The translations under genes and the position numbers were made by a program. A stretch of 53,603 nt of DNA, the filler included, from Bipalium vagum (Eukaryota): assembly GCA_037834085.1 (NCBI GenBank). It is 3 parts of 3 records of this genome, joined end to end, with 100 filler letters (N's around TTAATTAATTAA, not from the genome) between each part and the next. Parts side by side here need not be neighbours in the genome. Positions count along the whole stretch, not along the records: positions 1 to 18,042 come from JBBMKC010043020.1; 2 more parts are not named here. One strand, given 5' to 3'. This document shows, one piece after another, positions 1 through 31,500 of this stretch; within the stretch, counting starts at the first letter, position 1; each line of letters opens with the position of its first letter. The notes beneath the pieces were generated by a model. It searched no databases. It saw nothing but the letters and a program-made list of their open reading frames with translations, and was not told the origin of the DNA.

Positions 1-235
1 ATAATACAAATGTCTTAATTTTATTTGAAATTTCTCAAAATGATAAATCTCAAATTTATTCGAAGATGTTATCACATTTTATTGAAAAAGAAGAGTTTGA
101 TTATTTATTCAATTTTCACATGAATCAAAAATATAATTATTTTTTATAAATTTAATGACTTAAAAATAGAGCCTTCAGGTTTATGAAACCAAAAATATTT
201 TCTAAAATTTTTTCTTTAAAAAAATGGAAGAAGTA
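1..235 (+). pseudogene. Maverick/Polinton packaging ATPase, C-terminal remnant
   Basis: Translates IYSKMLSHFIEKEEFDYLFNFHMNQ, nearly identical to ORF 50220..50429(-) (IYSKMLAHFIEKEDFDYFFNYHMN), which lies downstream of A32-type ATPase motifs. It sits directly upstream of the capsid remnant. Confidence 0.6.
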
Positions 236-1290
236 ATGAATTACGATTAAAATTACTATCATCGAAAAACAGCATATGATAAACAGAATTTTATGAAGTA
301 CGTTTAGATCCAGAAACAATTACAAATTTAAATAATAATGGAAATTTAAAATTTACAATAACACCAAAAAAAATCCTTTAAATTTATATGAAGGATATTT
401 TATTTATGAAATTGAACTAAAAGGAATAAAACCAGAAGATAATATTACTTTACAAAATAACTTTTTTCCTTATTTATTTTCAAATGCAACTTTAAAATTA
501 GTTTCAACAGATGTTGTAACTATTCAAAAATTAGGTCCATCAAATTCTATAACTAATTTTATAATGATTGATAAAAATAATGATGGAGAATTATTTGGAT
601 GGATTCCTGATAAAATTATAGAAGGTGAAACAAAAAATAATAAAGGATTTAGAACAAGAAAAAATTTATATTTAACTACATTTCAAGGTAGATTTCCATT
701 AAAATTAATGTTTGGTTTTGTACAATTTTTTAAGAAAGCTATTTATAATATTCAAAGTGAAATAAAAGTATTAAGAAAAAAGGTAATGATGATGAAATAT
801 TTTATTTAACCAAAGAAGAGTTAAAATTAAGTTTTATAAATTATTATTATTTATTTTTTCATTAAAATTAAATAATAACGCAAATTTAAATCTGGTCTCT
901 AGAATGACAGATGGTAAAATTATTAATATTAATTTTTTGAATAGAAACTGTATAGAACTAAATTTAACAGAAGGTACAACTCAAACCTTACAAATATATA
1001 ATATAACTAATATTCCAATTTATTTATTTGTTGCTTTTAGAGAAACAGGTTCTGATTATACAAAAAATAATAGTTTGTTTATTCAAGATAAAAATAAATC
1101 GTTACTAGTTCAACTTGTTGATTCATTATATCCTATAAAACCAATAAGGTTTGAAAAAGGTTACAATAGTAAAACTTATTTGAATTATGTAAATGCTTGT
1201 AAATATTTTAATAACGATCCACAATTAAGTTTATTAGAATTTCAAAATTTATATTCTATATTTTTTAATGTAACGGATCAAGCAGAAAAT
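224..1290 (+). pseudogene. Maverick/Polinton (adintovirus-like) major capsid protein, frameshifted
   Basis: Segments YEVRLDPETITNLNNNGNLKFTI, LQNNFFPYLF, IPIYLFVAFR..NNSLF, LYP, YLNY and LSLLEFQNLYSIFFNVTDQAENL resemble Polinton double-jelly-roll MCP motifs. Includes ORFs 564..809 and most of 904..1362. Composition shifts to higher GC at about 1291. Confidence 0.7.
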
Positions 1291-2899
1291 TTATGTATTT
1301 TGATGTCAACTGACTCACGACGCTCAATTCGTATGGTCAGCGCCTGTACTGTGTCACTGTGATCATTGAGTGACCTCAGTAGATCCTGGGGCTCAATGCA
1401 GGATTTTGGCTGAGTAAAAATGTAGGATATATGTGAAACGTAAAACAATAATAGATCATATAAAAAACTGGTCCCAAACTGCGCATAAGTTCCTCGGATA
1501 CCTGGGGCTCAATCCATTGTATCGAGGCAGTTATGGAAGTTCCTGGGATCTGGGGCTCAATCCAAATGCCCAGTGCCTGTATTGACTTACGGAGATGACG
1601 GCGTAATGTTAATAGATCTTGGGGATGATTGCAGGATCGTGGCTGAGGTCCGCAAAAGATTATAAAATAATAAAGATTACCCTGTGTCGTTTTTGCATTC
1701 CCGTCGGCCACGGGATAAAATGTTGGGTTGGGCACTTTAACCTCTGCACGTTCCCTCAGTGGGGTAGTTTTTGGGTCGATGAGTTCCGCACCGTTTTGTT
1801 GAGATGGATTATTGCTAATCATTCGTAGGGAAAAATTTTCACAAGGAAAACTGGTTTTACTTCCGCCTGCTAGCATGGACGGATCCTTTACGTCTGGATC
1901 TCTTATCGGTATGTTACATTGGCATAGCTCCAATGCCAGATAGGTGTTAGCTGTGATGGAATGCCGCATTTCCAGAGGGCGCAAGGCAAGGTTCGTACTT
2001 CGGACACAAACTATGTCGCCGATACTTTTACGTCTCTCTACCAGCATAGACGGCCATGTCGTTGTTGACTACACCGGATTGTTCTCCTCCAACTATCGGC
2101 CTGAGAAGACTGGATGAGTCTCCCAAGCGAAGAGATCCTGGACAGATAGGATTCTGGTTAAATGAAAGTTTTTGGATTGTTTTGCCTTCAGGTATCACCC
2201 TGGAGGGATATTTGCTGATGGAGTTATCAGCACCCAGTAATTGGGGTGGAAGACCCTTCCTACTGTTGTCCACAGCCGACCTTTTCCAACCGTTTATCCC
2301 TTGCCAGAACAATTGGAATGGGTGAGATTCGTACCTATACAAAAATTCACCTGTGCAATCCACCCAGAGTTTCGGTTTTCACCTATCCTCTGAGTGGTTG
2401 TCGTAGAAAAATTTCTGCTTCTCAGACGGTGAGGGCAAGGGTCATTTCTGACCGATACGGGCGTGGTAAGGGCACTGGGAAGATTATTTCCTACAACTTT
2501 GCCTTGCTCCACATCCTCGGGGTTGTCGCCCATCAGAACGCCATCATCGGCAGTTTGCATCTTGGGTGGTCTTGTGATATGAACACTCTTACTCCTCATG
2601 TAAGTGTGAACATATTGGCCCAGCGTGAGGTAAGTTTTGCTAAATATAAAGTTTAGAAAATCGGAAAATTAAAAAGATCTTAACAGAATTTTGAGACCGG
2701 GATCCAAATCAGGCAGAATAGTTAGCCGGCCCCAACTATTCTGCATCCAGTGTCTGTGGTTCGGCGGATGAGCGTGGTGGTCTGTCCAGAATTTTTTGTT
2801 CAATAAAACCTCATCCCTCTAAACGCATTTCAGATAAAAATCTGCTTTTGTCTCGAAATTGCGATTACGCAAACTTACCCAATTACAACGTGTATGTTC

Positions 2900-3223
2900 A
2901 ATTATGGACCTCTTCCACGCCGGCATGTTATTCAAACTCATTACTCATTATTATTACTCACATGCCATGTTCTATCTTATGGCCTCTAGCTCGATTACTC
3001 ATACCTTCCTCGATTGAAACACGAAATTTTGTCTTGTTAATGTTTGGGCTCCTGATGCTAAGTGCATATTGTTCTTCTCGTAATCTGCTAAAATTCTATC
3101 ACTAATAATTGATACCGTAGCTCCTGATTCTAATAAGGCTGCTACCATTCTTCCATTAATTTTGACCTTTATTATACTTTTGTTATCTGATCTTCGTTTT
3201 TCCCTTATACTTTCTTTAATCAT
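2900..3223 (-). pseudogene. Retropepsin-like aspartic protease (catalytic D mutated to E)
   Basis: ORF 2999..3223: IKVKINGRMVAALLESGATVSII matches the retroviral-type ALLD(S/T)GA motif. Confidence 0.8.
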
Positions 3224-3599
3224 GTTTACCCTAGGTTTGTATACTGGAATTCCTAACCTAGATACTTCTTACTCCTCAAGTTTACAGTCTTGTGGTTTCT
3301 CTTCCAGTTTTTCAACTGCATCCTGCGCCTTTCCTGGTATTATGTAGTATATAAAGGGATCCAATGTCGGATAAATTGCCCGATTAATGATTTTTAACAA
3401 ACCGGCATTTTTGATAATTTCAATAATCTTGAGATATTCGCCACCGACTGACGCTGTTGGTATTCTTCTCTTTCGTGCTTGATGTGAGAAAAATCCGGAT
3501 TCGCCTTCAATACTACTACTAGTCGAACTTTACCTATTTTTACCATTACTTCCAATTCGCCTTCCGACTCCTCTGGATTTCTTTCGTGAAAAATTTCCT

Positions 3600-5381
3600 T
3601 AAGCTTTGTTAGCTATTTTCCATGGTGATGGATAATAACAAACTTTGCTAGAAATGGCAAACAAGCAGTAATCAATCTCCATGGGAATCCGATCGTCCTA
3701 TAATGTATATAATGACATTATTTGAGATAATTCCCATTTAACCAACATGAATATCGAATAAATTCTGATTATACCTGCCATGAAATTCCCAAATCATGTA
3801 AATTTTCCCCATGTCTTTTCCAACAGTTTCATTCCTACTTTCTTCTAATGGTCTGGACTGAGTAGAACCTCCTAATTTCTTTATCTGCTGATCCTCCGTT
3901 CCTTAGCATCACTGAATCCACTAGATGTGTTTATACTCTTCCTTTCTGGGAACATGATATGTCTTATAGCTTCCTCAATATCCTGAGTTGTATATATTAC
4001 CGCTGAAGCCAATTCGTCCAAACTCTCAAATTTTAGTCCACTTTCGATTTTCAAGTTTCTTTTCGATCAGGAAGAGTGATCCATATATCTTGAGTTATGG
4101 TGACATTGCTGCTCAACATTCCAATATTTTTGGTTTTTCTTCCTTTTCTAACAGGATTTGTGTGACTAGTGCTACATAACGTTCTTCATTTTTCCAAACC
4201 ATTGGTAGTTCGTTGGTGCATTCCTCAGTTCTTCTCAGTTGCACGTTTACTATAGCACACCTCTCCCATCATTCTGGCAAAAACTCCTTGATCTGGTAAG
4301 ACCATTGGTCCTACTATTTCTGAGTTGCTGACTATCATAGCAAATTGAGTTCTTAACAACTCCCGATATAGCTTACAGTCATTCCCCACAACCTCATGAT
4401 ACATTTCCCTCATGGCCTGTTGTAAAACGTCATATACGAAATCCAATTTTGTATTTGTGTAATCCGCTAGTTTCACATCCGTTTTACTCAACCTTTGCTC
4501 CGACCACTTCATGAAAGCTGACAAATATACCCTTATGATTTGTGGTGTAAAATTCTGTATTGCATTTTAGTATTTGTTCTCTTCTGACAAATCTAATCCC
4601 TTCATTTTTATCTCTGCTCACTAAGAAAACAGGCGTTTTCTCCTTTTCCACTTTCTGTTATCCTTGATATTTTACTTACGACTCATGCTTTCCTTTACTT
4701 TTCGCCTTCTAGTGTCGTAAACACCACTTTCTTTAAAAATACCATATCGCAATCTGTGGATAGTACTCGATATACTAGCAACGAATCTCCTGTGTCACAT
4801 TTTGTGTGCTTAAAGTTACAAAAGGGGTGTGATAACATTTTCCGTGTGAGGGAGTCGAATACTGCCTCAAACTCTCGTAGGTGTACCATATAATCTTTAT
4901 ATATAACCACCCAGGACACTTTCTCGCCATTCCTGTATTTTTCTCTACCATTGCAGGTACCGTCTGCTCCTATACTTCCTCCTTCGGTTATGGCTTGGCT
5001 TGTTCTTACTCCTATTTTTGCATCAATTGCCAGTCCTGCCGCGATTTGTAACTTTCCTATTACAAAAGCTGATTCACAATTTTCCGAGTTTACAATCACT
5101 ATGATTGTTATGAGAGTTGCTTCCAAAAATGCGGATCTACAGTAGTACTCAAGTCGCCTGCTTTACAATGCATTCTTTAACAGTAGCCCTTCTGAATTCC
5201 ATTTCCTGGTAGATTTGGTATTCCACTTCTATACTTTTTAAATTTTTTGGATATGCTTCTGAGCATCCTTTGAGATCTACAAGCGAATAAATTTTCCCAA
5301 ATTTTGGTTTTGTGGAGTCGTATGCTATTCGTTCTATTCATCATGTTTAAAAACATCATGATCATTATTAGTGTTAAGTTC
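3600..5381 (-). pseudogene. Chuvirus-like (class III/gB-like) envelope glycoprotein, degraded
   Basis: Across frames: IAYDSTKP..YSLVDLKGC..YQIYQEMEFRRATVKECIVK; GSIGADGTCNG; YTNTKLDFVY..NDCKLYRELLRTQFAM..QGVFARMMGEV; CAIVNVQLRRTEECTNELP; IYTTQDIEEAIRHIMFPE; TWGKF*FGNFMAGII; then hydrophobic C-terminal segments. The motif order matches chuvirus-type glycoproteins. Includes ORFs 4225..4524, 4695..5126 and 5177..5365. Confidence 0.8.
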
Positions 5382-5410
5382 CTAAAAAGTGACTGATTTT
5401 AAAGGGGTTA
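5382..5410 (-). promoter_or_regulatory. Putative splice acceptor for a subgenomic env mRNA
   Basis: Minus strand TTTTAACCCCTTTAAAATCAGTCACTTTTTAG|G (branch-like TTAAC, pyrimidine tract, AG at 5383-5382) lies immediately before a signal-peptide-like stretch NLTLIMIMMFLNMM. Confidence 0.45.
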
Positions 5411-6049
5411 AAAAGATCAAAATTAAGCTTTTAGATTACTTAACAAAATATTTAATATCAAAAAGGTTTACAGATGAACTTTCAAGCACAAAAACTGAAA
5501 ATTACTGTCACAATAAACGATCAAAAAAAAATTCAAATGAACTGAGATAACACAAATGGTTTTTAAATATTTATTTGTAAATCTAGTTTTTACAATTAAA
5601 ATCTTTATGGGATTATCAAGTAAAGAAATCTTTTGGGAAATTAATTTCTCTTAACTTCATATATCTTCTGTATCTATGGATCACGTACATAATCTCTGCC
5701 TGCTGAACACTAAACTCTCTTATATGCGGTTTTATTACTTTGACTATTCTTGCAAGCATCATTAGATTGACCGTTACCTGACTTAACAAATCCATAATTC
5801 TGTCTTTGTTTCTTGGCGTTCTTAAGAATTACCGTTCTAATATCTCTGGAAGTATATTGTATTCTTCTGGATCCAAATCCACTAATGCCATTATTACTTT
5901 CAGTTAACGTCTTTTCTTTCTTCTAACAAATTGTTTCTGGTTAATATCTTAATTCCATTTTCTTGTGATTGGATCATTGATATCTGACATTTCTTCATCT
6001 TTAACAATTCTAAAAACTGCACAAAAGGATAAAATGCGCAATATTTTTT

Positions 6050-7550
6050 CTTTCTTCATCTTTAAACTCTAAATCAACTTCGCAAATAAACTCTAATGCT
6101 GTCTCATATTCATTATGATTAGAGCAAAGCTCTTCTGTACTTTCGGATATCAATATAAATAGATATCAATCATCTATGAATAATCTTCTTCAGAAAAATT
6201 ATACTTTTTATAATCTAAATATTCATATCTCAAATTTTTATATGATTGACACATTGCATTTCCATAAAGATTGTTTGCATCAATATAAAACAGATAATTT
6301 GGTTTTAAAAATTCTGTTAAATCTTTTTATCTGTTAAAGTTTTCATAATTTTTGGTAATTCTAATTTATCTAATTCAAAATAACTCTGATTTCTCAGTAT
6401 ATTTATTATGAGCTTTAATATATTTACTTCCTAATATCATTGATATTTCTCCTCTTATTATTTTTTTCAGAAGTTTCAAACATATTTTAATAAGTAAATA
6501 AAAATATTTCTCAGTTTTTAATAATACTAATTCTCAAGTTAAGCCAGGAGTTGAATCAAGATGACAAGGACCTAAAATAAATCGTTTCCTAAATTTTTCA
6601 AAACTATCTGCTAATAACTTTACATTTTAAAATATAAAAAATAATATATAAAAAATATATAAAATTGTGTAATCCCAATGATTTTTACAAAACGTTAAAA
6701 ATATTTTGTTATCATCTTTCATATTCTTCATTAAAAATATTTGCCTTATTTATTGTAGAATAGAATGCTTCTTTTAACAATAATTCTGTTCTATTATATG
6801 TTTTAAAATCTGTAAAATATTCATAAGGATAAATTCATTTTTTTATCTAGTAAGTTGAAATCTTGCTAGAAAATTTTTTAAAATAATTTTTATCTTTTTC
6901 TAGAGAATTACTTTTTAATTTAATTTTATTTATTGACTGATTAATACATTCAATATCAGCATAGATTACAAAAGGAAGTTTAATTTTATATTTATAATTT
7001 GTAAAATATAACTTTGAACCTGAATTATAAAAGTATTTTTTTGGTTTATTTAATATACAAAAATCATGTTTTATAGACTCAAGCGTTTATTGATAAACAT
7101 CTTTCACAAATAAGTAACTCTTCATTCTTATATGAAATAAGCTCATATTCAATTTCTTCTCTTATCCAGGCTTTAAAATCTTTAATTAAAATATAATGAT
7201 CTTCATAAAATAAAAAAGATATTGTTTGTAATTTTTTTTGAGAAGAAATATGTAGTGGATATATTCTGTACAATTTTCTTAATTCAATTTTATATTGATT
7301 AATGCAATCAATCATATATAAATTTATTCTCAAATTATTTTCTATTTCAAACTTTTTAATATTATTTATTTTCATTAGTATTTCCTCATTATTATAAATA
7401 AAATTATATTCATAATTTTTATACCATGTTACTCTTTCTTTGAATTTGATGATGTGTGAGATAACAACAAAAGATTGACCATAAAATATTTTGATCTTTG
7501 TTTTGAATATTAATAATTGAATGGTAATTGAAAGGTAATTCAGCATATGA
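6050..7550 (-). pseudogene. Protein-primed family B DNA polymerase of Maverick/Polinton, degraded and 3'-truncated
   Basis: Motifs HYILIKDF, ICERCL, LPFVIYADIEC (ExoI), YPYEY, FYS, FEKFR, IRGEIS, YIDANNLYGNAM (motif A) and ICEVDLE, with multiple stops and frameshifts. Includes ORF 7079..7546. Confidence 0.9.
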
Positions 7551-7624
7551 TTTTATCAATTGAAAGAGTTAAGTGAGAAAAACTATCTGCAACTGTTCTA
7601 AAAACATCTTTACAAAAATCACGG

Positions 7625-7779
7625 ATCTTTTATCTTTTTTTCTCCGCGCGGGGAAAAAAGGAAAAGATTTTTAATGGGGTAAAACGGAAAAGGACTTTTT
7701 TGACAATATTAAGTTTTATTTTGACTGTTAAATTCTATTTGGCAAAATCTTAATTACAACAAACTTAATATTGTCAAAA
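7625..7779. repeat. Palindrome plus 19-bp inverted repeat
   Basis: TTTTTTCTCCGCGCGGGGAAAAAA near-palindrome within 7625-7668; TTTTGACAATATTAAGTTT (7698-7716) is a perfect inverted copy of 7761-7779. Confidence 0.8.
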
Positions 7780-7899
7780 TAGAAGTGAAAACGGTGTATA
7801 TTAATATTTTAATAATTTGCATTGTGTACATAAAGCATGCATGATCATTATTATCAGAAAAATCTCGAACAAATCTGTACTGGTACAACAGATGTAATT

Positions 7900-8445
7900 T
7901 TTAATAAACTTTTTCGAAAGGTGTTTTAAAACAATCTTTACCATGTAAATGCTGTGCCAAGCCAATGTAATGCAAGCCATTACAAAAAATAAGGATAGCG
8001 TAACATTTAGGTAAACGGAAACAACATGTGCCGATTATAAGAAATATATTAGCATACGGACAGGTTCTATTTTCGAGAGATATCGATTTCATTTAAAAAC
8101 TGGTTTGACGTTGCTATGAAAATGGACAATAGATGAAAAAGAAACAGACATAAAGAAAGAAGTCGATGTTGATAAAAACGTTTTAATTTACATCTATGAT
8201 GACTATGATGAAAATGTTGTGATAATTGTTGTGAAATCATTGTAAATTAGGTGGTCAAAGAATTATATGCCAGATTGAAGAAAGTTTATTAAAACATAAA
8301 CCAAAATATCATCGAGGCCGTGCAACTGAACACGAAATCTGGGTATTTGCAATTGCAGATATCAGTCATGAACCATCAAAAATATATCTAGAAGTAGTTG
8401 AAAATAGAAAAGCAGAAACTCTACTACCAATGGTTAAAAATGTAA
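7900..8445 (+). mobile_element. Merlin/ISXO2-like (IS1016 family) transposase remnant
   Basis: GGQRIICQIEESLLKHKPKYHRGRATEHEIWVFAI..IYLEVVENRKAETLLP, with an upstream zinc-ribbon segment (PCKCC..ISIRTGSIFE). Confidence 0.85.
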
Positions 8446-9279
8446 ATCTTTAATTTGAAAATTTTTAGTACTTAGTAATTAGTTTTTTTTTCGTTGAATA
8501 TTTTTTCCTGTATTTTCGTATCTTCATGATTTTTATTATATTTTTACAAAATTCACAATACTATTCTTCAACTGTCTTTTTTAAACATAAAAATTTTAAA
8601 ATAATCTACTAAATTTATAACTATTTTATTTAAAAATTTTACTAATTTTCTTTTTATTTTGAAAACTAGATATTTCTTCTATTTTATATTTATTAAAATT
8701 TATTAATCTATTATATTTTTCTTCTAAGTACTGTTTATATTCAAACTTATTTACAACTTTTATTAAATATTCTAAATCTTTTTTATGTTGATATAAATCT
8801 TTTCGAGTAATATTATTATTTGAAGTATTAATGAGTATTTCATAATATTTATTTTTGCGGAAATTTATTTATTATTTTTATGATTTCTTCTTCAGTAAGA
8901 TTATTTATATTTAATCGAAGTTTTGGTCTTGTTTAATTTTGCAATTTTTAGAAATTAATTTTGATATTTTTTCTTGGATATTTTTTTGTATTTTTTAAGA
9001 GAAAATATGATTTTTTTTGTTAATTTTTTCTTTATTGTATTTTTTCTAAAATTATGAAAAATATAGAAAATATGAAAAATGTTGGTATTTTATTGTTTTT
9101 ATAAAATTTAGTAATTTTATAAATATATTTTGCTAGTACATCCATCAGTTAACTATAATACGCATAGTTTAGTGCAATAGTAAAATTTACAAAACTACAA
9201 TTGTCTTAACAAAACAAGCGCACAAGAACTAGAACTTAACAACCATTTTATCAAGCTATTGACAGATTTATTAAATATT

Positions 9280-10314
9280 ATGATTGTTTCATTGTGGTCA
9301 ATCTGGAAAATAGAATTTAAATTTATTTTACTAATTATTATCATCAATATTCTTATAAGGAATTCTAGTGGAATAATCAATGTAAATTTTATGAAATCTA
9401 TAAAAGGAAGTACAAACTTTCGAGAAAATTGCAATAAAATTTCTACAGAAGAATTATTTAAATTCTCTAAAAAAGAAATCTTTAAGAACAAAATTCCTCG
9501 AATTCTTCATTATGTCTATAAAAGTGAATATGTACCATATCAATATTGGGTACCAATTCTAGAGTGTTTGAAAATCAATAAAGATATGAGAATAATCTTG
9601 TGGACAGATTATACTGCATACCAATTTATAAAGAAATATTTAGGAAATTTTATGAAAAAATACCTATCCTTTTGTCAAGATAATGAAGAAATTAAAAGAT
9701 CTGATATAATAAGATACATAATTCTTTATGTTTTTGGTGGAATTTATTTAGATCTGGACACAAGATGTATTAAACCATTTCGAATAGCAATGATAAATCA
9801 CACTTGTATCCTTAGCAGTGTGATACAAATTCAGTCTCAAATTTTATTTCAAAGTAACTTATTAATCATGAATAGTCTAATGGCTACTATTCCTAACCAT
9901 GATTTTTTCAAATTTTTCATTTTCAGCATCCCCAATAACAATAAAAATGTATCTGCCCATGATTTAACAGGTCCAACAATGCTAACACCTATCTATCACA
10001 AATACGTAAATTCTCTCACATTAGAAGACAAGAATGATTCCAAGAAAACAGTTCACATAGCAAATGGATCAATATATTCCCCATTTATAGAAGACACAAC
10101 TTTTAAGTCGTGTCTACTTAATAATAATAGTCCGTTAACAAAAAAAGGTTGTAACTTACATGATTGGTATCGAAAATCAAAAGTAATCTTAGAAAATGAG
10201 GCTGTGGCAAGTCATTTATTTCTACATCTCGCCTATTCTGTCACATCTAATTTAGTTTCGAAACTAAATCATATTTGTTTGGCTAATTCGACAATTTATA
10301 CCTATCGGGGTTAA
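9280..10314 (+). CDS. Glycosyltransferase family 32 (DXD, OCH1/SUR1-like mannosyltransferase), type II membrane protein, intronless
   Basis: Intact ORF from the first ATG at 9280. N-terminal hydrophobic anchor, KIPRILHYVYK, IILWTD, RSDIIRYIILYVFGGIYLDLD, NSLMATIPNHDFF and LTGPTML. Confidence 0.9.
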   Translation: MIVSLWSIWKIEFKFILLIIIINILIRNSSGIINVNFMKSIKGSTNFRENCNKISTEELFKFSKKEIFKNKIPRILHYVYKSEYVPYQYWVPILECLKINKDMRIILWTDYTAYQFIKKYLGNFMKKYLSFCQDNEEIKRSDIIRYIILYVFGGIYLDLDTRCIKPFRIAMINHTCILSSVIQIQSQILFQSNLLIMNSLMATIPNHDFFKFFIFSIPNNNKNVSAHDLTGPTMLTPIYHKYVNSLTLEDKNDSKKTVHIANGSIYSPFIEDTTFKSCLLNNNSPLTKKGCNLHDWYRKSKVILENEAVASHLFLHLAYSVTSNLVSKLNHICLANSTIYTYRG

Positions 10315-11070
10315 ATATTCTAATCCTAACTTAAATACTATAAAATGAGTTAATTTTGGCTTTATATATTTTTAATATTTTCAAAGAGGACCTGAATTCA
10401 TAAATTTTAGTAGTTTTTCTAATTTTAGCAGAGTATTTTCATTTATAAACTGAACTAAATTTTGGATTTATGAAAATGAGATAAAATAAATCTAGATATT
10501 TCTTAATTGTTACTTTAATTTTAAAATCTAATTAAATATGAAGTATAAAAATATTTGTGAAATCGTTATTTTTAAAATTCTTTAGCACAAAAATAATGGA
10601 CTAGTAAACAAGTAAATTCAATAACCAAGTAAAAATCAAAAAATAATTTAATCTAACCACTCGTGGAATATGAAACAAGTCAAAAAATTTTATTAATCGC
10701 ACTACAATAATATTCAAAAATTATCAATGGCTCCCAGCAACAATAGCACTTTAAAAATATTTTATCAGTGTTAAATTTGTCAATCAATTTAATTGAAATA
10801 CTTTTCTACTTACTCTAATAATATTATGTAAATTTTAGGTTTAACTTATTGTTTCTATAGCAGATTTACATCAATTTTGAATTATTGATTTGATTAATTA
10901 AAAAGAATAGACTAACAAAAACCTTATGCTCATAGCAAGAAATATTTACTATCATTTAGAAAAAAAATTATGTAACATTTGTTGAGTTGTCCAAAGGCAC
11001 AAAATCTGATGGCAATAATAATAATAATAATAACAAAAGAAATAAAATCTTAGGAAGAATGAAATTAATA

Positions 11071-11892
11071 TGTCTCGATGACGAGATTATTGAGGTGAGC
11101 TTGTTATTTATTTTGTTTGTGGAAAATAGGGAATAAAACTCTGTCGTCTGAGTAATTAATCCCTTTGTCTAATTTTGACAAGTAGTAGAGACAAAGTTAG
11201 AAATTAAGGGCTATTGATGGAAATAATTGTCTCGAAGCGTATGGATTGCTGATCGTAGCCCAATCTATAGAGACGGCCATTCCCTTAAAATTCCCAGAAA
11301 TCATCGAAAATTAGTGAAGATATTATTTATACCAGTGAAGATTGTATTGTTCCAGAGGAACATCAGTGGTTTCAGTATTTTTAATTTTTTTATGACTTCA
11401 ATGCAAGAGGATTTACCAAGGGGACTCATCGAGTTTGGAAATCCCTAGGTGACCTGCAAAGGACCTAGAGGACGACCCGGGGATGTCGTTCCTGGTGAGA
11501 CCATTACATTTATTATTTTTATTTATTTCTATTCTTTTAGTGATCAGTCTCCTATCATTTATTGTAGAATTATTTAGTTATACCATTATTGTTCATTTGT
11601 TTTTGCATTCGTTTTTTACTATTAATTAATTTTTTAACGTTGATGTAAACGATATTGGTATTTGACATTGGGAACTATTATATTATTGCTTTTGATCATT
11701 GTGTTTATTGGAGCGAAGTTGTTATTACAACAAGAGTGTCGGACTGTTGTGGTATTTTTAATAAAATGTTGTTGTGAGTGTTTTAATTCCGTTTTTTGCA
11801 GCGGATAGTATTATTGTTAGGGGTTTTTGATTCACATAGAGAGAGGGTACAATTTTATTGTATAGTAAAGAGATAATAGAGTTATGGGCACA
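11071..11892 (+). mobile_element. Probable solo LTR (family A)
   Basis: TG...CA ends; the GC-rich core at 11400-11500 is homologous to the reverse complement of 19780-19870. No clean TSD. Confidence 0.55.
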
Positions 11893-12471
11893 ATATGACT
11901 TAGTGAGGAGTTACTGATAGACGAACGAAATTTACTTTTAATATGGTATAATAGTAACACATTGTATTATCAATTTTTAATAGTTGTATCTTCAACTCCA
12001 CAAGTGATACATTTAACTGTACTGCATCAGTTTTCAGGTTCTAATTCTTTTCAACATTTTCATTCAACAAGAAATACAATATGTTAAATAATGAAAATTC
12101 TAAATATTAAAACCTGGTGAAATTCAACGAGTACTTTTCCTGCCATTGAAGGGTATTCTTCAACAACTGAAAACAAATAACAAGGAATAAATATTTCAAT
12201 AAAATTTGATACAAATTAAGAATAAAATTTACTTCAACCACTAGTATAAATAGTTAGAATTAAGAAAATAAAAATCTAATTGTTTCATTAAAGCATCAAT
12301 TATTTTTTCATATTATTTTAATTTTCGTAGTAAATTATTCAATATATTCATTCAATACATTTAATTTATTTAATGATAACTACGTCTGTACTCAGGTGAC
12401 TATATATGTTAAATTTAAGTTACAAGAAATATATTTAAGATAATTCAAATAAATCTAATAATTCATTGGAT

Positions 12472-14140
12472 ATGTCAGAAAGTCTAGGATGGGTTGATTT
12501 TCTTGTGTTGTTCACTTTATTTTTAAGCAGTTTGAGTATTGGCGTTTATTTTGGATTTTTTGAACCTAAGAAGAAATTACATAAATTAAAAGGTACAGAA
12601 ACTAAAGAATTTTTACTAGGTGGAAGAAAGATGACTGCGATTCCCGTAGCATGCTCCTTAATGGCTAGCTTCTTTTCAGCTATAACATTATTAGGTTTCT
12701 TTATTTTCATCTTTTATTTTTAATGACCTTTTTTCAGGTACTCCGAATGAAATTTACACATATGGTATTATGTATTGGTTCATTGGGTTTGGTTACGTAT
12801 TTACAATTATTATCAGTTCAATTCTATTTATACCAGTATTTTACAAAATGAGGATAACTTCTTCCTATGAAGTAATTCTCTATTGTTGTTTTCATTTAAA
12901 TAGTTTAATATATATCATAAATTAATTATGTTTAAATTTTATTTAGTATTTGGGATTACGGTTTTCAAAAATCAACCAAATTTTGGCCGCTTCAGCCTTT
13001 ATATTGCAAATGGTTAGTTTTTAAATTTAAAAATTAAATAATTATTTTCCCTCGAAAGAATTATGATTTATTTAAAATTTCAAAAATTTTAAACAAATAT
13101 AATTTAGCTACATTAGGTCATCTCATAAGTATTTACAGAAAGATGTCTAGAGCAAAAAATTATTTTATCACGTACCTCACTTAATTGCCGACAATAAACC
13201 TCACTAGTAATGGTTTCATCCATATTCAGGAGCTGCATGTATATATTTTCCATTCATATCCCACCACACACAGAGAAAAACTTTTATCGGATGAAGACCT
13301 GGTTTAGACGTTAGGATTAGTTCTTCACTAGAACATACTACTGCTTTTTACGCTCAGCATTGATAATTAAAACCTATTTTTCTTCACAGCAAACTACTCT
13401 TTCCAGAAATGGGTCTAGATCATGGCGAATGAGCAAACTTTCACCCGATTCAAAATTTGCTGTTCATCTAGATCATGTGGAATCCATTTTCTACATTTAG
13501 AAGTTTTTCACATTTGGATTAAATGGCGATGAAAACTTGTTTTAGAATTGTTCGCGAGTTTTGCCAATTACCGTGTTTTTTGATAAGGATCCTCTTCCAC
13601 TAGTCTATTTAGGTTGTTTACATCTGTCTATACAGATCGACCCGACTTTGACTTGTCTTGCATATCGAAATCTTTGTTTGTCGAAAACCATTTTTCACAT
13701 GTACTTAAACTAATAGATTCGATTAATGCTATATATAACCGGCTATATGACTATCTGGAATTTAATTGCACTTAAAGTCATACAGCAGACAGATCCTTAT
13801 TATTTCTTGAGTAAATTTCATATCCAAGAATCTTAATAAATAATGTATGAGTACATTAGTTTTATATAAAGGCACCTTTAAATAATATTATTTTACATAA
13901 TCCGCTTATAAATTATTTCAATTAATGTAGATTAACAATACTAAATAATACTATATGAAAAATTAAAAGTTGAATAATGAAAATAATACTTTATTTTTAA
14001 ATATAATGTAGTTTTATCAACAATTTTAAAATATTCTTTTTTTTTTAATAATTTTACATGATTTTTATTCAGTAATTTATTATTTTAGAGTCCATATATG
14101 GGTATCGTTCTTTATGGTCCTTCTTTGGCTCTCAGAGTTG
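12472..14140 (+). CDS. SLC5 sodium:solute symporter (SMCT/SMVT-like), 5' portion only, 4 exons
   Basis: Exons 12472-12694, 12738-12871, 12947-13012 and 14089-14140 have GT-AG introns in consistent phase. Protein: [77 protein letters not shown]. Later exons were not found. Confidence 0.9.
13110..13830 (-). mobile_element. Mariner transposase remnant in SLC5 intron 3
   Basis: Minus strand: KSKSGRS, WIPHDLDEQQ and HPIKVFLCVWWDMNG, typical mariner WVPHEL and KVMLCVWWD motifs. Confidence 0.85.
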
Positions 14141-14249
14141 GTAGGGTATTTCATTTTTTCATTTTGTAATGTTTTAACAAAAATTGTACATTTAATGATT
14201 TAGTATAGAGTCTTAACCTTTAAATTATGATAGTTTTCATTTGATTGTT

Positions 14250-14989
14250 AACAGTATTTTTTGGAAATTTAAAGATATAGAATTAATTTTAAAAATTATA
14301 AAGATAATTCAACCTCATTACTCATATTCAAGAACCATAATAAAGAGTATATAAAGAGAAGGATTTCTCAGGTTATGGAAGTTATCAATTTTTTATTAAA
14401 AACGTTATCAAAGCATGACCAGAATCTTATTATTAATTTAACAAAATTAAGAAATAGTATAAATTTGTATACTATGAATTTTTTTCATTTGGATTGTGTT
14501 GAAGTTCTCAATCTCTGAGCAACTACGAGGGCTCAACGGAGAGTTAGAGAATTTTGACAGAAGTTATCTTGTAAGGTATTTTTCTTTCGTAACTTGTTTT
14601 TTATTTAACTATTGATAGCAATTTATTTCTTATTTATTAATTTAATATTTAATTTTGACTAATTGATGTTTAATTCTTGCTTATTATCATTTAATTATAC
14701 ATTTGATTATTGCCTTTTATTAACATTGGATTATTTGAAGGGTTATGTGAATGTTCAATTAAACAATTTGTTGATTAGTATCATTGTTATTCTCATACAT
14801 GCTTGAGAATTTTGTAGTTGTTATCATTGTTATCTGAACTCTTTCTAAAGATCTCATAGTGTTATCGCTGTTATCTTATGAGTATTGTTGTACACTATGA
14901 TATATATAGGCGTTATTGATTTACTGATCGTTGTTAATTGCACCGCCTTATAGAACCGAAGTCAGGTTAAATTCGAGGTCTCCTACACA
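14250..14989 (+). mobile_element. Probable LTR remnant (family B, diverged)
   Basis: The 3' end (TTTACTGATCGTTGTTAATTGCACCGCCTTATAGAACCGAAGTCAGG) resembles the ends of 42548-43155 and 47273-47700. The start is approximate. Confidence 0.45.
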
Positions 14990-14999
14990 ATTTTTGAAA

Positions 15000-15850
15000 A
15001 TTTTTATTCAATAAACATAAACATTCAATAAAGTTGTATAGTTGTGTTACAATTTAATAATAATTTAATAATACCTATTTCCACATTTGCAAACATTTCT
15101 TTTATCTTAATAACAAGAGCATCAATAGCAGCATATTTTTTATTTCTTGGTTTCATATCACCAGCAGAAACAATTAAGTTTTCTCCAAATAGGCTGGGCA
15201 AATTGTAAATAACAACCCTTAACTGAAGTATTTGGTTATTGCGAGTTATGGCGTTAAACACAGAGTACTCAAAATTAATTATTATCATATTGTGATGAAA
15301 ATATTATCTTCAAAGTATTTCAACATGGTAAAATATGGTATGAGAACTTTTAAATATTCCATCCATAAAAAAATTACATATTTTAGACCTTACAACATTT
15401 TCAATAAAATCTTTATCTCCAAAAATTAACAACTTTCATTTGTATCGTATATTAAGAAATTTTTATCCATCAAATTATACCCAAATTATACCCGTAAAAA
15501 AATCTTTGTATATGTATGATAAAACTTATGTTTAAGCCTGTAAATTCTGATCGCCTAACTAAAAATATTTAAATTAGTATTTTGGGGTAGTTTATTCTCC
15601 AAATAAACTTGAATGACGATTCATCATACAGTGTTTTTGATCCTGCTTCACTTTGGCTCCTAATGATTATTTTATTTTGAGAATGATTTCTCATGATTCA
15701 TCGACAATATTATCATGGATTTTCTTCAATTAAGTAATTGATCTTTCATTTGTTTACAAAATAACTTTTCCTTTTGCACTTCGAATACTTTTAACCACCT
15801 AATTCGAGACCGTGAACAATAAATGTATATCCATTTATAATGGGTTTGAC
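15000..15850 (-). mobile_element. MULE/Mutator-like transposase remnant
   Basis: FMDGIFKSSHTIFYHV resembles the MULE MDGTFK..P..F.Q motif; C-terminal RNKKYAAIDALVIKIK; possible FLYWCH-like N-terminus. Confidence 0.6.
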
Positions 15851-16014
15851 TTTATTTATGTCTTTTTCAATCCAAATTATATTTTCGTTGGTTTCTAAAT
15901 TGTCCACCACACTTCCTAAATACAGGGCAAGTCTCAAAAAAATGTATACACACTTAAGTGTATCATATGAACTAACATCAGTATATAGTATTTCATATGG
16001 CAGTGCTTCAAAGT

Positions 16015-16338
16015 TCAGTGAACAGAATCTTTTGATATTCCTAGCTTAAGACTTACTTGTCTCACAAATGTTTGTGGGCTTTGATTAAAAAATTTCAGTA
16101 TTCTTTCTTCCTTTGTAGTACTTGTCGATATTCTCCGTCTTCCAGAACGTTTCTTGTTGACATTATTAATAATTCCATCTTTTTGATATTTATACTTTAT
16201 TCGACTGATTACCAGTCTTGTTGGAGGATCTATCTGAAATTCTTTTTTCAACCGTAACTGCACCATTTTTATGTTTTCAAACTTGAAGTAATTTTTGATA
16301 ATAGATTTTCCTTGCTCAAAGTTCAATCTACCTTTCAT
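16015..16338 (-). mobile_element. Tc1/mariner transposase N-terminal HTH fragment (DUF4817-like)
   Basis: VQLRLKKEFQIDPPTRLVISRIKYKY..RSGRRR..SPQTFVRQVSLKLGISKDSVH. Confidence 0.85.
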
Positions 16339-16729
16339 GATTCAACCTTTAAGAGTAAATTTATAGGTTTAAAATAGCGGTAATTTCTTACCAGTTATTG
16401 GAGTATGTAAACAAACTATAAAACAAGTAATAAGGACTTATAATTACTTAACAATTTTTATTTAAAGTATATACAATATATTTTTTAATATTTTTTAAGT
16501 ATATATTTCTAAATATGATTTAGTATAATGAAATATATAAACAAAAAAATAAGAATCATTTTCATTATTATAACTAGTATTATTCATAACATGATTTTTC
16601 AAAATAATTCAATATTTCAAAATGTTTTTTCAAATACAATACCCTCCAAAAGTTTGTTCATCCCCTTTCAAAAAAAATAAAAACGAGTGTAAGTCAAGAT
16701 ATATTTATCAAATATTCACCACAATTACA

Positions 16730-16975
16730 TTCTAATACTTAGTTTGACATATTGAGAACAGATTTGACTCGCATCGCCATTGATTCCACGCGATTTTGAC
16801 AATATTTTCTATCCAAAGGATAACAGTGTTGTTGAACTGATTTCCATAATTGCCCTTTGGAATGGCATGGAACATGTTGTATTGCATGCTTAAAGTATCC
16901 ATAAATATTTTCGATTGAGTTAACATCCGAAGAATTTTCTGGCCAGTCAAATCTGTTCTCAATATGAAAGGGCAT
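16730..16975 (-). mobile_element. Tc1 transposase C-terminal fragment
   Basis: DWPENSSDVNSIENIY (WPxQSPDLNPIENLW-like) and VESMAMRVKSV. Confidence 0.85.
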
Positions 16976-17763
16976 CCAACTAAGTATTAGAATGTAATGA
17001 TGGTGAATATTTAATAAATATATCTTGACTTACATTCGTTTTTATTTTTTTTATATGAATTGAACAAATTTTTGTATGGTACTGTAATGTTTCAAAATTT
17101 GTGTATTTCAAAAATAATTTTTTCAAATATTTGATGTTTCGAATAAATGAATTTTCTTGATTTGTGTTTTTCAAACATTTAAAATTTTAAAAAACAGGTT
17201 TTTCAAAAATTGTGTATATAACCAAATTCGAAATAGTTAATGTTGAAAATTTTTCACAAAACAGCTGTTGTAAAAAAATTTGAAAATGGACATAATTTAA
17301 TGATTTTACCTCCATATTCTACTCAATTAAGTCCCGATTTTCCAGACCACTAATCGACTTCACAAAATTGTAACTATCACGCCATCATTTTTTTCTCTTT
17401 TACACTTTATTCCTATCACGAGATTCGAAATATTTATTATAAATTTATGTACCTCAATTTTAAATAAATAAAAGCAAAAAATCTTGTATCATCAAAAAGC
17501 TATCAAAATCTAATTTAATCGAATAAACTTAAACGATAAGAATTATTATAAAAATAATAATAAATAAATAGTGTGAGTTTATGTACTGTCAATGATCAAT
17601 GAAAACCAAAATTTACAAAAACTAAAATGAATCGAGGTTCGATAATGATAATTATTTTATCGATAATAATACATAAAAATAAAACTTTTCGTTGTGTTAA
17701 AAAAAACAACCAGAATTACATTAGATATTCTTTTCTTTAAAATAAAAACTTAATAATATAAAA

Positions 17764-18042
17764 CAGTGCTCCGCAACCGGTGCGCCACGGCACACTGCTG
17801 TGTCGTGAACCGAATACAAGTGTGCCGCCGTCAAATACATTGTGTTTGATATTTTTCCATCATATTTTCAATTTTATTTATTGATCAATATTATTTATTG
17901 TTTTTAGAAAAGTATTGGTTAAAAGAAATTTTAAAGGTTAAATTGAATGAATTCAAAATATGCCCGAACTATACCAATACCTCGATGATGATTACTGGAT
18001 AGCCAATCTTGCATACATGGCTGATATATTTGAACATTTGAA
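17764..18042 (+). mobile_element. hAT (Buster/Charlie-like) element, internally deleted
   Basis: Terminus CAGTGCTCCGCAACC with GC-rich subterminal repeats, followed by DDYWIANLAYMADIFEHL (W..LAYL.DIF motif). Runs into the gap. Confidence 0.75.
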
Positions 18043-18142
18043 NNNNNNNNNNNNNNNNNNNNNNNNNNNNNNNNNNNNNNNNNNNNTTAATTAATTAANN
18101 NNNNNNNNNNNNNNNNNNNNNNNNNNNNNNNNNNNNNNNNNN
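18043..18142. other. Artificial contig-joining linker
   Basis: 44 N + TTAATTAATTAA (stops in all six frames) + 44 N; identical structure at 36007. Confidence 0.95.
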
Positions 18143-18316
18143 AATTCTAAGAATTCAGATTTTTATTGTACTGGTGTATATAAACTTGTTAATAATTGGC
18201 AAAAAATTGTTGATTCTGATGGAAATTATTTTGTTAATTAAAGTTGATTTTTAAAAAGGTTATGACTTCTTAAAGTATATGGTTATAAACCGCAATTACT
18301 CTTTTGGAAACCTAAT
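18143..18316 (+). mobile_element. Mariner 3' end with terminal inverted repeat
   Basis: FYCTGVYKLVNNWQKIVDSDGNYF* followed by CCGCAATTACCTTTTGGAAACCTAAT, a mariner-type TIR. Confidence 0.85.
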
Positions 18317-19225
18317 GATGAAACGAAAAATTATTAAAGAATAATATTAGTAAATCCGAAAATGGTAACACAAATTTAAAAACTTTGTTGATTTATTTTT
18401 TCTTAAATCTCGAGTTACAAATGCAGCTTACCCATTCCTCATCGGTAATAAAAAATATTATTAAATTTTTCATAATTCAGTCATTTTTTTTAATTCTTAA
18501 TATTATAACAAAGTTGTTACAACGTGCAATTCATCGGTAAGGTGGGTTCTTTTTAATATAATTTCTTTTTGAAATACAAGCCTGCTTCTTGATTTGTACT
18601 CTTTAAAGTAATTTTAATGAACCAGATATCTGACACTAGACTAATTATATAATCCATCAGGATAATTAACTTTTTTAGTTGAATAATTTAAAAATTTTCA
18701 ATATAAAGTTTTTGTGGTAACCTTTTTATTATAAAATTTTTATAAAATTAGATTTTTTATTATTTTTATTATTATTATTATTATAGTTAGTAGTGATAGT
18801 AAATATTATATGAAGGCAAGAAAATGTTCAGATGAGAACTTCATATTGTAATTTTATTTAGTCCTTTTAGCTATCCTATAAAATATTAATAATTCAGTGA
18901 AATTAAAATGATATTCTCTCGAGAACCTTTTAAAATAATGGCTTCAGTCATTAAAAATTATATTATCTTCTTTTGAATATGTTTGAGAAATTTTATTTAC
19001 TGTACTAATACGAAAATTAATTTAATTATTTAGTAACCCTTTTAAAATTTAAACAATAAAGTTAGTTAATTCATGAATATGCTTTTTCTATTATCATTTG
19101 TTATTTAATTATTTATATACCATTTCAAGATCTATGTTAAAGTTTTCAACTTCAATTTTAAATTTTTTTATAAAATAGGTATAAAGTAGATATTATTAAA
19201 GTTAAATACTAAAAAACAGAAAATT

Positions 19226-19460
19226 TTATTGATGAATATAAGGCAGACCAGCAGCTGAATAGATTATATTTCGTGTCATGTTACGGAAATAGCCACTTGG
19301 TCGTGTTCCTTGAATAATGTAATCCCTCAAGACACCAATATTATTGTTTCTTAACATTTCCCAAACATGATTTCTGATTTTTGAAAAAGCTAATTCTATT
19401 GGGTTCACCATATAAGAGTATGGAGACAAGAATTTAAATTCAAAACCAAATTCACTAGTA
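19226..19460 (-). mobile_element. IS630/Tc1-like transposase C-terminal fragment
   Basis: FKFLSPYSYMVNPIELAFSKIRN (LPPYSPxLNPIE-like). Confidence 0.8.
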
Positions 19461-19623
19461 ATCACAATCAACACAAGACTCAAAGTCAAAACTGATCAAC
19501 TGTCTGAAAATCAAATTAACACAAATGCACGTTAAAATAACTTATGATTAAGAATAATGTTAGTCGAAAATTATTTAAAATTATTATTTAATGACTGTAA
19601 GGAGTTTAGATGACAAATGAATG

Positions 19624-19695
19624 GGGGACGTAGCTCAGCGGTAGAGCAGTCCATGCGCATGTGAAAGGTCCCGGGTTCGAATCCCGGTGTCTCCA
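19624..19695 (+). tRNA. tRNA-Ala(CGC)-derived sequence, probably a pseudogene or SINE head
   Basis: GGGGACGTAGCTCAGCGGTAGAGC...GGTCCCGGGTTCGAATCCCGGTGTCTCCA. Acceptor stem (with G3:U70), D arm, T arm and A/B boxes are intact. The anticodon stem (GTCCA/GTGAA) does not pair and U33 is lost. Confidence 0.8.
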
Positions 19696-19699
19696 ATTT

Positions 19700-20245
19700 A
19701 TTGGAACCTAACAATGACAATGAAGTTCAAAAGATTATTAAAAATTAAGAACACACAAAAAATCCAGATTAGCCTCAACTGGAGAGACAAGGAGTCCCCC
19801 CGGTCATCCTCTAGGTCCTTTGTAGTTGATCTAGGGATTCCCAAACTCGCTGGATCCCCTTGTATCATCATTAACAAATGTAAACAAGATTACTGAATTT
19901 TCTTCTGACAAATGATCCTTGACAATATTCTTTTAAATATCCTCCGAGTCCAATTAACAATATTTTTCTAGGCAATAATTCTTCCAAGAAATAATAATCT
20001 TCTGCTAAACAATGACAATCTTCTTCCAAGTAATAATGATAATATAAAATTCCTCTTATTTTTTTATCATGTTCTAGGAATAGCCGTCTCTTTATATAGT
20101 CGTAGAGATTGGTTTACCATCACCAATCCCTACGCTTAGAAACAGATATTTTTCCTAATAGTCATTAATCAAACTTTATCTCCACGACAAGATAAATTTT
20201 GATCAAACCAAAAATATTAATTTAAACTTACAGTCCCCACGACTG
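19700..20245 (-). mobile_element. Truncated LTR (family A), inverted relative to 11071-11892
   Basis: Reverse complement CAAGGGGATCCAGCGAGTTTGGGAATCCCTAGATCAACTACAAAGGACCTAGAGGATGACCGGGG aligns to 11417-11483. Confidence 0.6.
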
Positions 20246-28500: not shown

Positions 28501-31500
28501 TTATTTATTATTTTATTATGATTATTAATAAGATTTATTTTTATATTTTTAAATAATTTAAATAAATTGATTTAATCTAATTATAATTCTATTTGATGTA
28601 ATTTATAAGCAAATAATTCTATTAATCAATCAACAGATCTTTCAAAATCAAACACGTATTTAATTTATCTTAAGAATAGTGTACACTGATAAAAGTTAAG
28701 TTTTATTTAATTTTCATCGATGTTTATACGGATCAATTAATTATAAATCAATAAAAATATTTTTTAAAATTTAAATTGATGCATTTTTATTGAGTTTTTG
28801 TCTTATCTATCTTACATATAATTTCTTTATTTCTAAGTCATTCTATAATTGTGACCTCACTCTTCATCATTCTTCTCCTTTGTATCTCTGTTTTCATTTT
28901 ATATAACAATTTTTTGATATTATAACACATTAAGATACATGGCAAAATTTATGCCATCAGACATGTTATTATTGAAAGCAAAAAGTCAACATATCGATTT
29001 GAATTACATCCAATGTGATTCGGAGCTGCTTTGGCTCAATGCTCTTTTCGGCCGAGTAGCATGGGACATATTTCGTGGAACTTATTGGAGTCAAGTAATT
29101 CGGGAAAAGATTCAGAAAAAATTGAAAAAACTTCATGTAAAACATACATTTAATTGTCTATCAAATATCGTTGATTATCACTCCCATTGTTTCATTTTTG
29201 TAGTTACCTTACTTTATCGACAAACTGGAAATAATTGACATTGATCTTGGAAACGAATTGCCGGTGATTAGGAAAGTCAGTCGTCCATATTTGGATTACC
29301 GGGGGCTGTGGGTCGAATTCGAAATGGTTTACGCAGGTGGATTTTCGATGGGCCTTGAAACAAAGGTGAGATCGTTTTATTTTAATTTTTATTTATGTTA
29401 TTATTTTTGTTACTATTATCTTTATTCTTTTAATACCTTTAGTCATCTTTATTTTAATAAAAATAATTTTAAAAATTTCATTTATACTAAAATAAAATTT
29501 TTAATAATAGTTATAATAAATATTTTTAATTTAATTAATGTTAATTAATAAAAATTTTATATAATATTAATATTGATATATTGAAAAAGGATAATGTAGA
29601 ATTTTAATTAAATCAATAATTAAATATATTTATTTTCAAAAGCCTGAGGTTAGATAATTTAAATTTCAGGAATGTTGAAACCTCTCTGGATTGATAATTA
29701 TTATTTTAAACTATATTTATTTTCATTTTTTACAGTGCTCTATAAAATTCCGGACTGAGGCCACAAAAACTAATTAAATAGTGAAAATATTAACATTCTT
29801 TTTTAAACTATTTTTATAGGTAGCTATATGTCTATTTTAAATGGAAGTTTAGGCACTCAAACAGTAAGTTTTAAAACTAATTCTAAGATGTAATAGTCAC
29901 ATAAATCGTTCTATTTTTAGGATGGATTTTAGAGCAGTGAATTTGCATAAAATTTTGATTTAAATTACACAAAACGGCAACCGAAACCCATCAAATGTTG
30001 ACAAAAGTTTTTGGTATCTTTAAGATGAAGAGAACAAGCATATTTGCGTGGTTTTCTCTATTTAAAATTGGCAGCACATCATTAATAAATGACGAACGAT
30101 CTGGACGACCAATTTAAATAAGAACTCCAGAAGAAATTGAACAAATATTGATGTTGATTAATGAAGAATCGATAATAACTGTAAGGCAAATTGATGAAGA
30201 AACTGGTCTAAATATGACCAGCAATAATTTTGAAAAAGCCACTCATTGGAATGGAGAGCACCGCACGAAAGAACAAGGTTTTGCTTATAGCCTTTATTGA
30301 TAATCAGGATTTAGTTTATTGTGAATATCTACTGGAAGGTACTACAATAAACCAGGAAGTGTATCTGAATATTTTACGCAGATTAAGTGAAGCTATTCGT
30401 CAGAAAAGAGCAGAAAATGGGGATAGGTTATTGAATGCTACATTATGATAATCTTCAGCCTTTGTGCACATTCAGTCTTAAAATTTTTGACACAAAATAA
30501 TATCCAAATAATTCCACAGGCACCCAAAGTTAAAGATGACACTTAAAGAAGATTTTATACCGGAATTGACATTATAGTAAAATCTAAGTCAGTGTTATTA
30601 TCCATTTCAAAAAGTGATTATAAAAAATGTTTACCTACATGGAAGAAGTGATGGGGCAAATGTGTAGATGCCGGAGAGGAGACTATTTTGAAAAATATTA
30701 TAAATAAATGCTTTATATTGAGTTTATATTTTTGTGGCTCCAGTCCGGCAATTTATTGGACAAACCCTTAATATTTAGAATTTCGGGCTGTTTTTTGTTT
30801 AAGGAACGCATTTACTATTGGTTGTTAGTAAGTGCGTTCCTATTAGTCGCCTATTTATAGACAGATTTTTTTTATAGAGAAAAGCTTGTGGACATTAACA
30901 ACAGAGGCCTTGGACGCAGAAATCTTGAAGCATTAAAATCATTTTTTCAAATTTAAATAAAATCATCAGTAATGATGCCATTTTCAGGAAATTTTTTTCC
31001 AATTTCCAAAGTAAATTTAAATATTTGACTTTATATTAATTTATTAAATAAATTAAGCAATGCGTACTAAGAAAGTTAAAAATTAAGAAATTATTTAAAT
31101 TTGAAAAAATGATTTTAATGCTTCAAGATTTCTGCGTCCAAGGCCTCTGTTGTTAATGTCCACAAGCTTTTCTCTATAAAAAAAATCTGTCTATAAATAG
31201 GCGACTAATAGGAACTCACTTACTAACAACCAATAGTAAGTGCGTTCCTTAAACAAAAAAGAACCGAATTTCGATATTAATTATTAAAATTTTATTTGAT
31301 TATATTTTTTTAACTATTAATATTTATTAAACAACTTAACTTTTACATTAAAATTAACAATGACTTTTGTTATTATTATTTTTTTATCATGGCTATTTTT
31401 ATTAATATAATTTTGAGATTGAATTTATTATTTTCTGTGGTTATTAATACTATGTTATAATAATAATTTTTATTATTATTTGATTTATTATTTTAATTTT

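Follow-up and report, generated by a model that had tools for sequence, protein, structure and literature searches.

Does a fusogen gene that lies between a Maverick capsid gene and a Maverick polymerase gene belong to an enveloped Maverick, or to a retroelement nested in one? The question is raised by the left end of a 53,603-nucleotide (nt) stretch of the Bipalium vagum assembly GCA_037834085.1 (the window). Here the initial annotation described a glycoprotein-protease block between the genes for the major capsid protein (MCP) and the protein-primed family B polymerase (pPolB), and preferred a nested retroelement insertion with deletion to an enveloped Maverick. Our analysis supports this preference and points to the envelope glycoprotein (env) of a Burro-like GAG-ENV-POL Ty3/gypsy element. 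The block is probably the decayed env and protease of such an element, which was inserted once into a Maverick and later trimmed by deletions. We have high confidence that the glycoprotein is a dead retroelement env and not a Maverick gene, a claim that holds equally if the fragment was joined to its flanks without normal integration. The locus is an ordinary nesting of two known, abundant and dead mobile elements.

Composition of the locus

The features of the region are listed in Table 1. The env gene is read as seven frame pieces with six frame changes and 13 stops. Its matches to PF24664 (gB/chuvirus-type glycoprotein) are colinear over profile positions 97-578, and it spans positions 16-636 of the 658 in a profile built from 11 relatives, indicating that the glycoprotein is full length. 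Identity to the relatives is 29-38%. About 120 codons behind env, on the same strand, is the protease, which matches positions 7-55 of our own protease profile (E 1e-8) and is truncated at about 3040. The placement of the glycoprotein-protease block between MCP and pPolB is upheld. A word-index search, which is a weak one, with the env piece 5162-4698 returned nothing among 1031 candidates, and a viral contig collection yielded no relative of env or MCP. Three proteins of the window were absent from the protein collection.

Table 1 Features at the left end of the window (positions along the whole window; a point marks features without strand).
Feature	Positions	Strand	Evidence
Possible 3' remnant of Maverick packaging ATPase	3..250	+	By-eye likeness to A32-ATPase C-terminus only
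Maverick MCP pseudogene, two frame changes, last ~44 codons gone	286..1299	+	PF21738 E 1e-4; tblastn with P0038
GC-rich repeated block, left end of insert	1297..1810	.	Internal 93-nt repeat with a period of 233; 16-nt motifs spaced by ~116
GC-rich segment with short open frames	1811..3040	-	No Pfam match
Retroviral-type aspartic protease, cut short, active-site motif altered	3040..3190 (approximate)	-	PF00077 E 2.9e-5; own profile
Essentially full-length pseudogene of a class III (gB/Monjiviricetes-type) envelope glycoprotein	3544..5328	-	PF24664 colinear pieces; own profile
Coding-like segment at gag/cargo position	5601..6065	-	AT skew -0.20 as in env, versus -0.07 in pPolB; multi-copy depth
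Maverick pPolB pseudogene, internal deletion, cut ahead of motifs B and C	6066..7552	-	tblastn with L001 polymerase
22-nt inverted repeat close to end of Maverick-like zone	7695..7782	.	95% identity

Two Maverick/Polinton features flank the insert, a truncated double-jelly-roll MCP and a remnant of a protein-primed PolB. Residues 35-400 of P0038, a 444-aa double-jelly-roll MCP, align to the capsid pseudogene by tblastn over its whole listed length with approximately 40% identity (E 7e-48), and the aligned pieces are free of stops. On the other side, residues 369-938 of a Polinton-like polymerase (L001) align piecewise from 7375 to 6246 on the minus strand in tblastn, with an internal loss of approximately 220 residues (a jump from about 510 to 732 of the reference). 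Reference residues ~976-983 are matched at 6120-6066 by eye only, and motifs B and C (reference 1099 and 1198) are missing together with about 350 residues. A blastp match of the L001 polymerase tail to the relative P0007 (E 0.001) does not fall within the polymerase domain, and we regard it as a chance match. Both genes had been described as cut at junctions near 1290 and 6050; the cuts are real and are now placed at about 1297 and about 6065. A capsid without its end and a polymerase without its last two catalytic motifs mean that the composite is dead, and from its sequence the locus is predicted to be unable to make a particle, replicate or fuse membranes.

The convergent order proposed for the Maverick genes holds for MCP on the plus strand and pPolB on the minus strand. 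The packaging ATPase is only a putative part of it: positions 1-250 gave no relevant match in Pfam, in PHROGs or against the L001 ATPase. No Maverick integrase, cysteine protease or terminal inverted repeats (TIRs) were seen in 1-9000, where the window starts inside the element and leaves its left part out of view. A segment at 50262-50362 on the minus strand is related to positions 26-125 of the putative ATPase (80% nt identity) and lies approximately 1 kb from a decayed Gypsy integrase at 48570-49235 on the same strand, a second Maverick and Gypsy neighbourhood within the window.

The insert was correctly described as richer in GC than its surroundings, and it is a non-uniform block. GC content is 0.20 in 1-1296, 0.45 in 1297-2860, 0.36-0.38 in 2861-5330 and again 0.20 in 6066-7600.

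Relatives of the glycoprotein

A search with the env piece 4566-4228 against 1.84 billion representatives returned 31 matches. The domain scan covered the 16 longest and left out the 15 matches shorter than 350 aa. PF24664 was present in 14 of the 16 scanned proteins; the other two, P0015 and P0029, were dropped as spurious matches without the glycoprotein. With two cluster mates and three proteins from a profile search added to these 14, we compared 19 glycoprotein-bearing proteins. A protease follows the glycoprotein by 29-274 residues in 14 of the 19 (in 12 of these also by Pfam), and a Pfam reverse transcriptase (RT) domain is present in six. Four of the five relatives that have no protease simply stop inside the glycoprotein. 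The fifth is a stand-alone glycoprotein of 668 aa and by far the weakest match (55 bits versus 161-448).

The top scorer, P0040 (448 bits), has a Ty3 capsid, a zinc knuckle, a weak Bcl-2-like segment, env, protease and ankyrin. The sole relative with DNA context, L002, has an open frame of 3426 codons encoding env, three proteases and an RT-RNase H-integrase array, and no match to MCP or pPolB was found in its 12.9 kb. In PMC6431247, the planarian giant gypsy Burro/GYPSM1 is described with the order gag, Bcl-2, env, protease and ankyrin, its env sharing one reading frame with the gag before it and the pol behind it. The same paper reports degraded pieces of Burro, interrupted by stops and frameshifts, from Dugesia japonica. 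The B. vagum block resembles Burro, as far as that description goes, in its mononegavirus-like env ahead of a protease, and its closest relatives show the order gag, CCHC, Bcl-2-like, env, protease and ankyrin. It differs in that only env and a partial protease remain, gag, Bcl-2-like, ubiquitin-like, RT, integrase and long terminal repeat (LTR) parts being undetected; the likeness to Burro is one to the published gene order.

Elements of the GAG-ENV-POL type with a gB-type env are reported from Platyhelminthes, Nematoda and Bryozoa; two Schmidtea families are listed with 45 and 215 copies that are intact (Chary and Hayashi, eLife 2026, PMC13524379). The B. vagum locus is like these HSV/gB-type errantiviruses, as there described, in that an env of gB type precedes pol in a Ty3/gypsy setting and copy number is high in a flatworm-like genome. 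It is unlike them in being a fragment without RT, whereas those are intact. The copy is a remnant derived from the GAG-ENV-POL family and no complete member of it, with RT, RNase H, integrase, an LTR pair, a primer site and a target-site duplication undetected.

Several further features were observed in the relatives. Their env-pol polyproteins carry several aspartic-protease-like domains, up to seven in P0036 (4844 aa), four in P0008 and three in P0010, P0002 and L002 (3620-5827). Some of the extra domains sit beyond the integrase, and the parts of PMC6431247 and PMC13524379 covered here do not mention the multiplicity. Behind the integrase, L002:8950-10279 and the tails of P0007, P0010 and P0034 contain, by eye, a putative second membrane protein with a hydrophobic leader, an ectodomain and a transmembrane stretch, the last of which gives a weak Glycophorin A match. 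A separate 495-aa frame behind the L002 polyprotein (L002:10617-12104) encodes a DEDD exonuclease (RNase_T, PF00929, E 1e-5). A Bcl-2-like segment stands directly ahead of env in P0040 (residues 1131-1245, Pfam Bcl-2 E 0.0015), P0002, P0005, P0042 and L002:935-1288, and these segments are common to one another by profile. The L002 segment was not supported when its sequence was searched against the PDB, and the Bcl-2-like segment of the relatives was not found in the window. The deposited record of P0007 (HBK71150.1), a 2627-aa env-pol polyprotein, assigns it to a metagenome-assembled genome of Flavobacteriaceae; its source is likely a mis-binned animal contig.

Junctions and copy depth

The junctions were followed in X1, the one sequencing run in which the stretch was found, used as contigs; no RNA data set was listed as containing it. 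Run X1 may be the source of the assembly, and summed contig depth is not a copy number. The right junction is spanned by a 478-nt contig (5794-6271) without differences at a depth of 25, where other unique contigs have 17-28, and is therefore real in run X1.

At the left junction, summed depth is 103,000-124,000 in 1218-1269, 4,100 in 1270-1295 and 813 in 1296-1321, a fall of more than 100-fold. At 1262 nine contigs depart from MCP, and the sequence into which they run (median 202 letters) matches nothing in 1140-1900. Another contig, of depth 20, carries further repeated block instead of MCP ahead of 1297 (joint 1787 to 1297). Together, the depth step, the contig ends and the depth-20 contig indicate that other MCP copies continue differently. 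The depth-20 contig further shows that the left end of the insert is a break inside the repeated block and no natural terminus.

Could the left junction be an assembly chimera of two high-copy repeats? There are repeats on both sides, gaps of N occur elsewhere in the window, and no contig bridging 1297 is among the 8 of 762 pieces listed. With so few pieces listed, however, the missing bridge proves nothing; the right junction is bridged without differences, and no N occurs within 1-18,000. We consider a chimera very unlikely.

The depth data also bear on whether a planarian Maverick lineage captured a Burro-type env. The resulting composite would then have amplified, possibly with an envelope, as a counterpart of MFUS-1 in nematodes, and this locus would be one of its decayed copies. 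The env is full length although gag and RT are gone, nematode Polintons do bear a gB-like fusogen according to the published descriptions, and the junction contigs listed, at either end a part of the total, leave room for further composite copies. Against this, the depth at the left end of the insert is less than 1% of the adjacent MCP peak and less than 9% of the 901-1200 bin, and the listed right-junction contig has the depth of a single locus. These depths and the loose contig ends lean against a fusogen that recurs at one position in many Maverick copies. Both MCP and pPolB are destroyed by the junctions, a truncated retroviral protease still follows env, and L002 provides no Maverick context. 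Capture is the least probable of the explanations considered here, and we regard it as highly improbable. The enveloped Maverick raised in the initial annotation is not upheld: the capsid and polymerase genes end at the junctions, env has decayed to a pseudogene and is still coupled to its retroviral protease, and further copies of MCP continue into other DNA.

The nematode system shows what differs. MFUS-1 is described as an 866-aa stand-alone fusogen gene recognised by structure (bioRxiv 10.1101/2022.07.12.499685), with a median identity of 85% among 49 Caenorhabditis briggsae Polintons (bioRxiv 10.1101/2023.08.22.554363). In fold class and gene neighbourhood the B. vagum locus is like the MFUS-1 Mavericks: a gB-like fusogen of class III has Maverick genes for capsid and polymerase as neighbours. 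It is unlike them, so far as these sources describe, in that they have a conserved fusogen and intact core genes, whereas here a fusogen pseudogene, still linked to a retroviral protease, lies between cut MCP and pPolB genes. An intact stand-alone fusogen among intact core genes is absent from this locus. In the parts of the literature covered, including 10.1101/2025.02.07.637071 and excluding bioRxiv supplements, we found no Maverick with a fusogen described from any group other than nematodes.

Other segments of the insert

The repeated block next to the left junction may consist of subterminal repeats or of repeats from inside an LTR, truncated at 1297; TRF makes no call on it. In X1 contigs, other copies join 1710/1806 directly to 2703/2863, which ties the repeated block to the DNA directly behind the protease. 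Profiles of RT, RNase H and integrase gave no match in 1297-3040, where the same profile that detects the integrase remnant at 48570-49235 was used.

Three stretches within this part of the insert were considered individually. The assignment of 2900-2700 as RNase H was rejected, with no match. An integrase tail at 2917-2430, suggested by motifs seen by eye, gained no support: it scored -4.0 bits, where shuffles had a median of -3.9, and its frameshift-aware score was equalled or exceeded by 31 of 60 shuffles, in a weak test whose positive control lay within the shuffle range. The open frame at 2068-1376 had Atlas scores of 0.86 or less, which are lead-level only.

The segment 5601-6065 on the env side of the right junction is likely part of the retroelement. 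It has no match to the gag, Bcl-2-like or ubiquitin-like parts of the relatives. Its reading as a pre-env helical, ubiquitin-like or Bcl-2-like segment gained no support at 3.1 bits (shuffle 95th percentile 2.4, maximum 5.2). An exact 15-nt direct repeat, 5990-6004 and 6051-6065, is located just inside the right junction and is possibly a scar of the joining event.

Proposed route of the insert into the Maverick

We propose that the element entered by ordinary LTR-dependent integration, either inside the convergent MCP and pPolB genes or in the space separating them. Afterwards, one deletion may have removed the 5' LTR, gag and the last ~350 codons of pPolB; another, the 3' end of the element and the last ~44 codons of MCP; and a third, the rest of pol. 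In the intact parent, env would have been cut out of one long polyprotein and served an enveloped retroelement particle. Mavericks are strongly expanded, and Gypsy elements expanded, in the Dugesia genomes treated in bioRxiv 10.64898/2025.12.11.693146, so that such encounters are to be expected.

Several observations weigh against this account. With the LTR ends, the target duplication, gag and RT all lost, the route of insertion is only inferred and three deletions are needed. No long direct repeat that could be an LTR pair was found in the window, and the target duplication sought at the initial annotation's suggestion gave best flank repeats of 5-6 nt, off the junctions and at chance level. 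The stretch 1297-3040 gave no family match in the searches made, has a depth of 310-1240 per 300-nt bin (1501-3000) versus 1,900-27,000 for env, and may be a third element or a subfamily feature. Near the right junction, two contigs with a summed depth of 821 cover 6021-6043 and may run on differently from the window, and the left junction has the listed pieces without a bridge described above. Among the 19 relatives, P0006/P0034 and P0009/P0036 are cluster mates and not independent.

The same dead fragment may instead have been joined without normal integration, either as a one-step patch of a break (break repair or ectopic recombination) or as a deletion remnant uniting two Mavericks in a repeat-rich region. 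One event would be economical, as both ends have no LTR termini and both Maverick genes are cut within their coding regions. At the left junction a few letters fit both sides (MCP aligns to 1299 and the insert starts from 1297), and summed depth is several-fold apart between MCP (8,000-20,000) and pPolB (1,400-3,300). The strong expansion of Mavericks in Dugesia, as reported in the parts of the preprint cited above, also fits this reading. On the other hand, a one-step patch of 4.8 kb is long, and MCP and pPolB are convergent, as is possible inside one element. The internal deletion of pPolB indicates that this locus is prone to deletions. The common route is an LTR element that nests and is later cut down by deletion, which also counts against the patch. 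We consider a join without normal integration unlikely, and the nested insertion of a Burro-like element with later deletions the probable explanation.

Surroundings of the locus

Beyond the Maverick zone, a remnant of an ISXO2/Merlin-type transposase lies at ~7800-8450 (PF12762, E 0.002, under the curated cut-off), and no tRNA genes were found in 1-9000. The rest of the window outside this finding is AT-rich eukaryotic DNA (GC 0.265) with host genes and numerous transposon remnants; this GC content and the relatives of Burro type are in keeping with a planarian. Long open host frames encode a DXD glycosyltransferase (PF04488) at 9184-10314 on the plus strand and a RING-RAWUL Polycomb PCGF/Bmi1-like gene at 44501-45364 on the plus strand. 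Palindromic stretches at 30768-31280 (83% over 532 nt) and 39468-39695 (69% over 241 nt) are probably fold-back or MITE-like (miniature inverted-repeat transposable) elements.

Meaning for Mavericks and their fusogens

As found, the locus is of little importance, being two dead and abundant elements of known kinds side by side. For fusogen capture it leads nowhere, as capsid and polymerase genes were both broken where the insert was joined to them. That such nesting was the source of MFUS-1 in nematode Mavericks is speculation. If capture of env by a Maverick were true, enveloped Mavericks would have arisen a second time and independently, the attached protease would still betray the donor, and the retroelement origin of MFUS-1-type fusogens would become directly testable. 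Whether envelopment is exclusive to nematode Polintons is left open in the parts of bioRxiv 10.1101/2023.08.22.554363 covered here, and finding the same env in intact, TIR-bounded Mavericks would, if true, bear on that point. The locus does show physical contact, within one genome, between Mavericks and Ty3/gypsy elements that carry env, and such contact is the precondition for fusogen capture.

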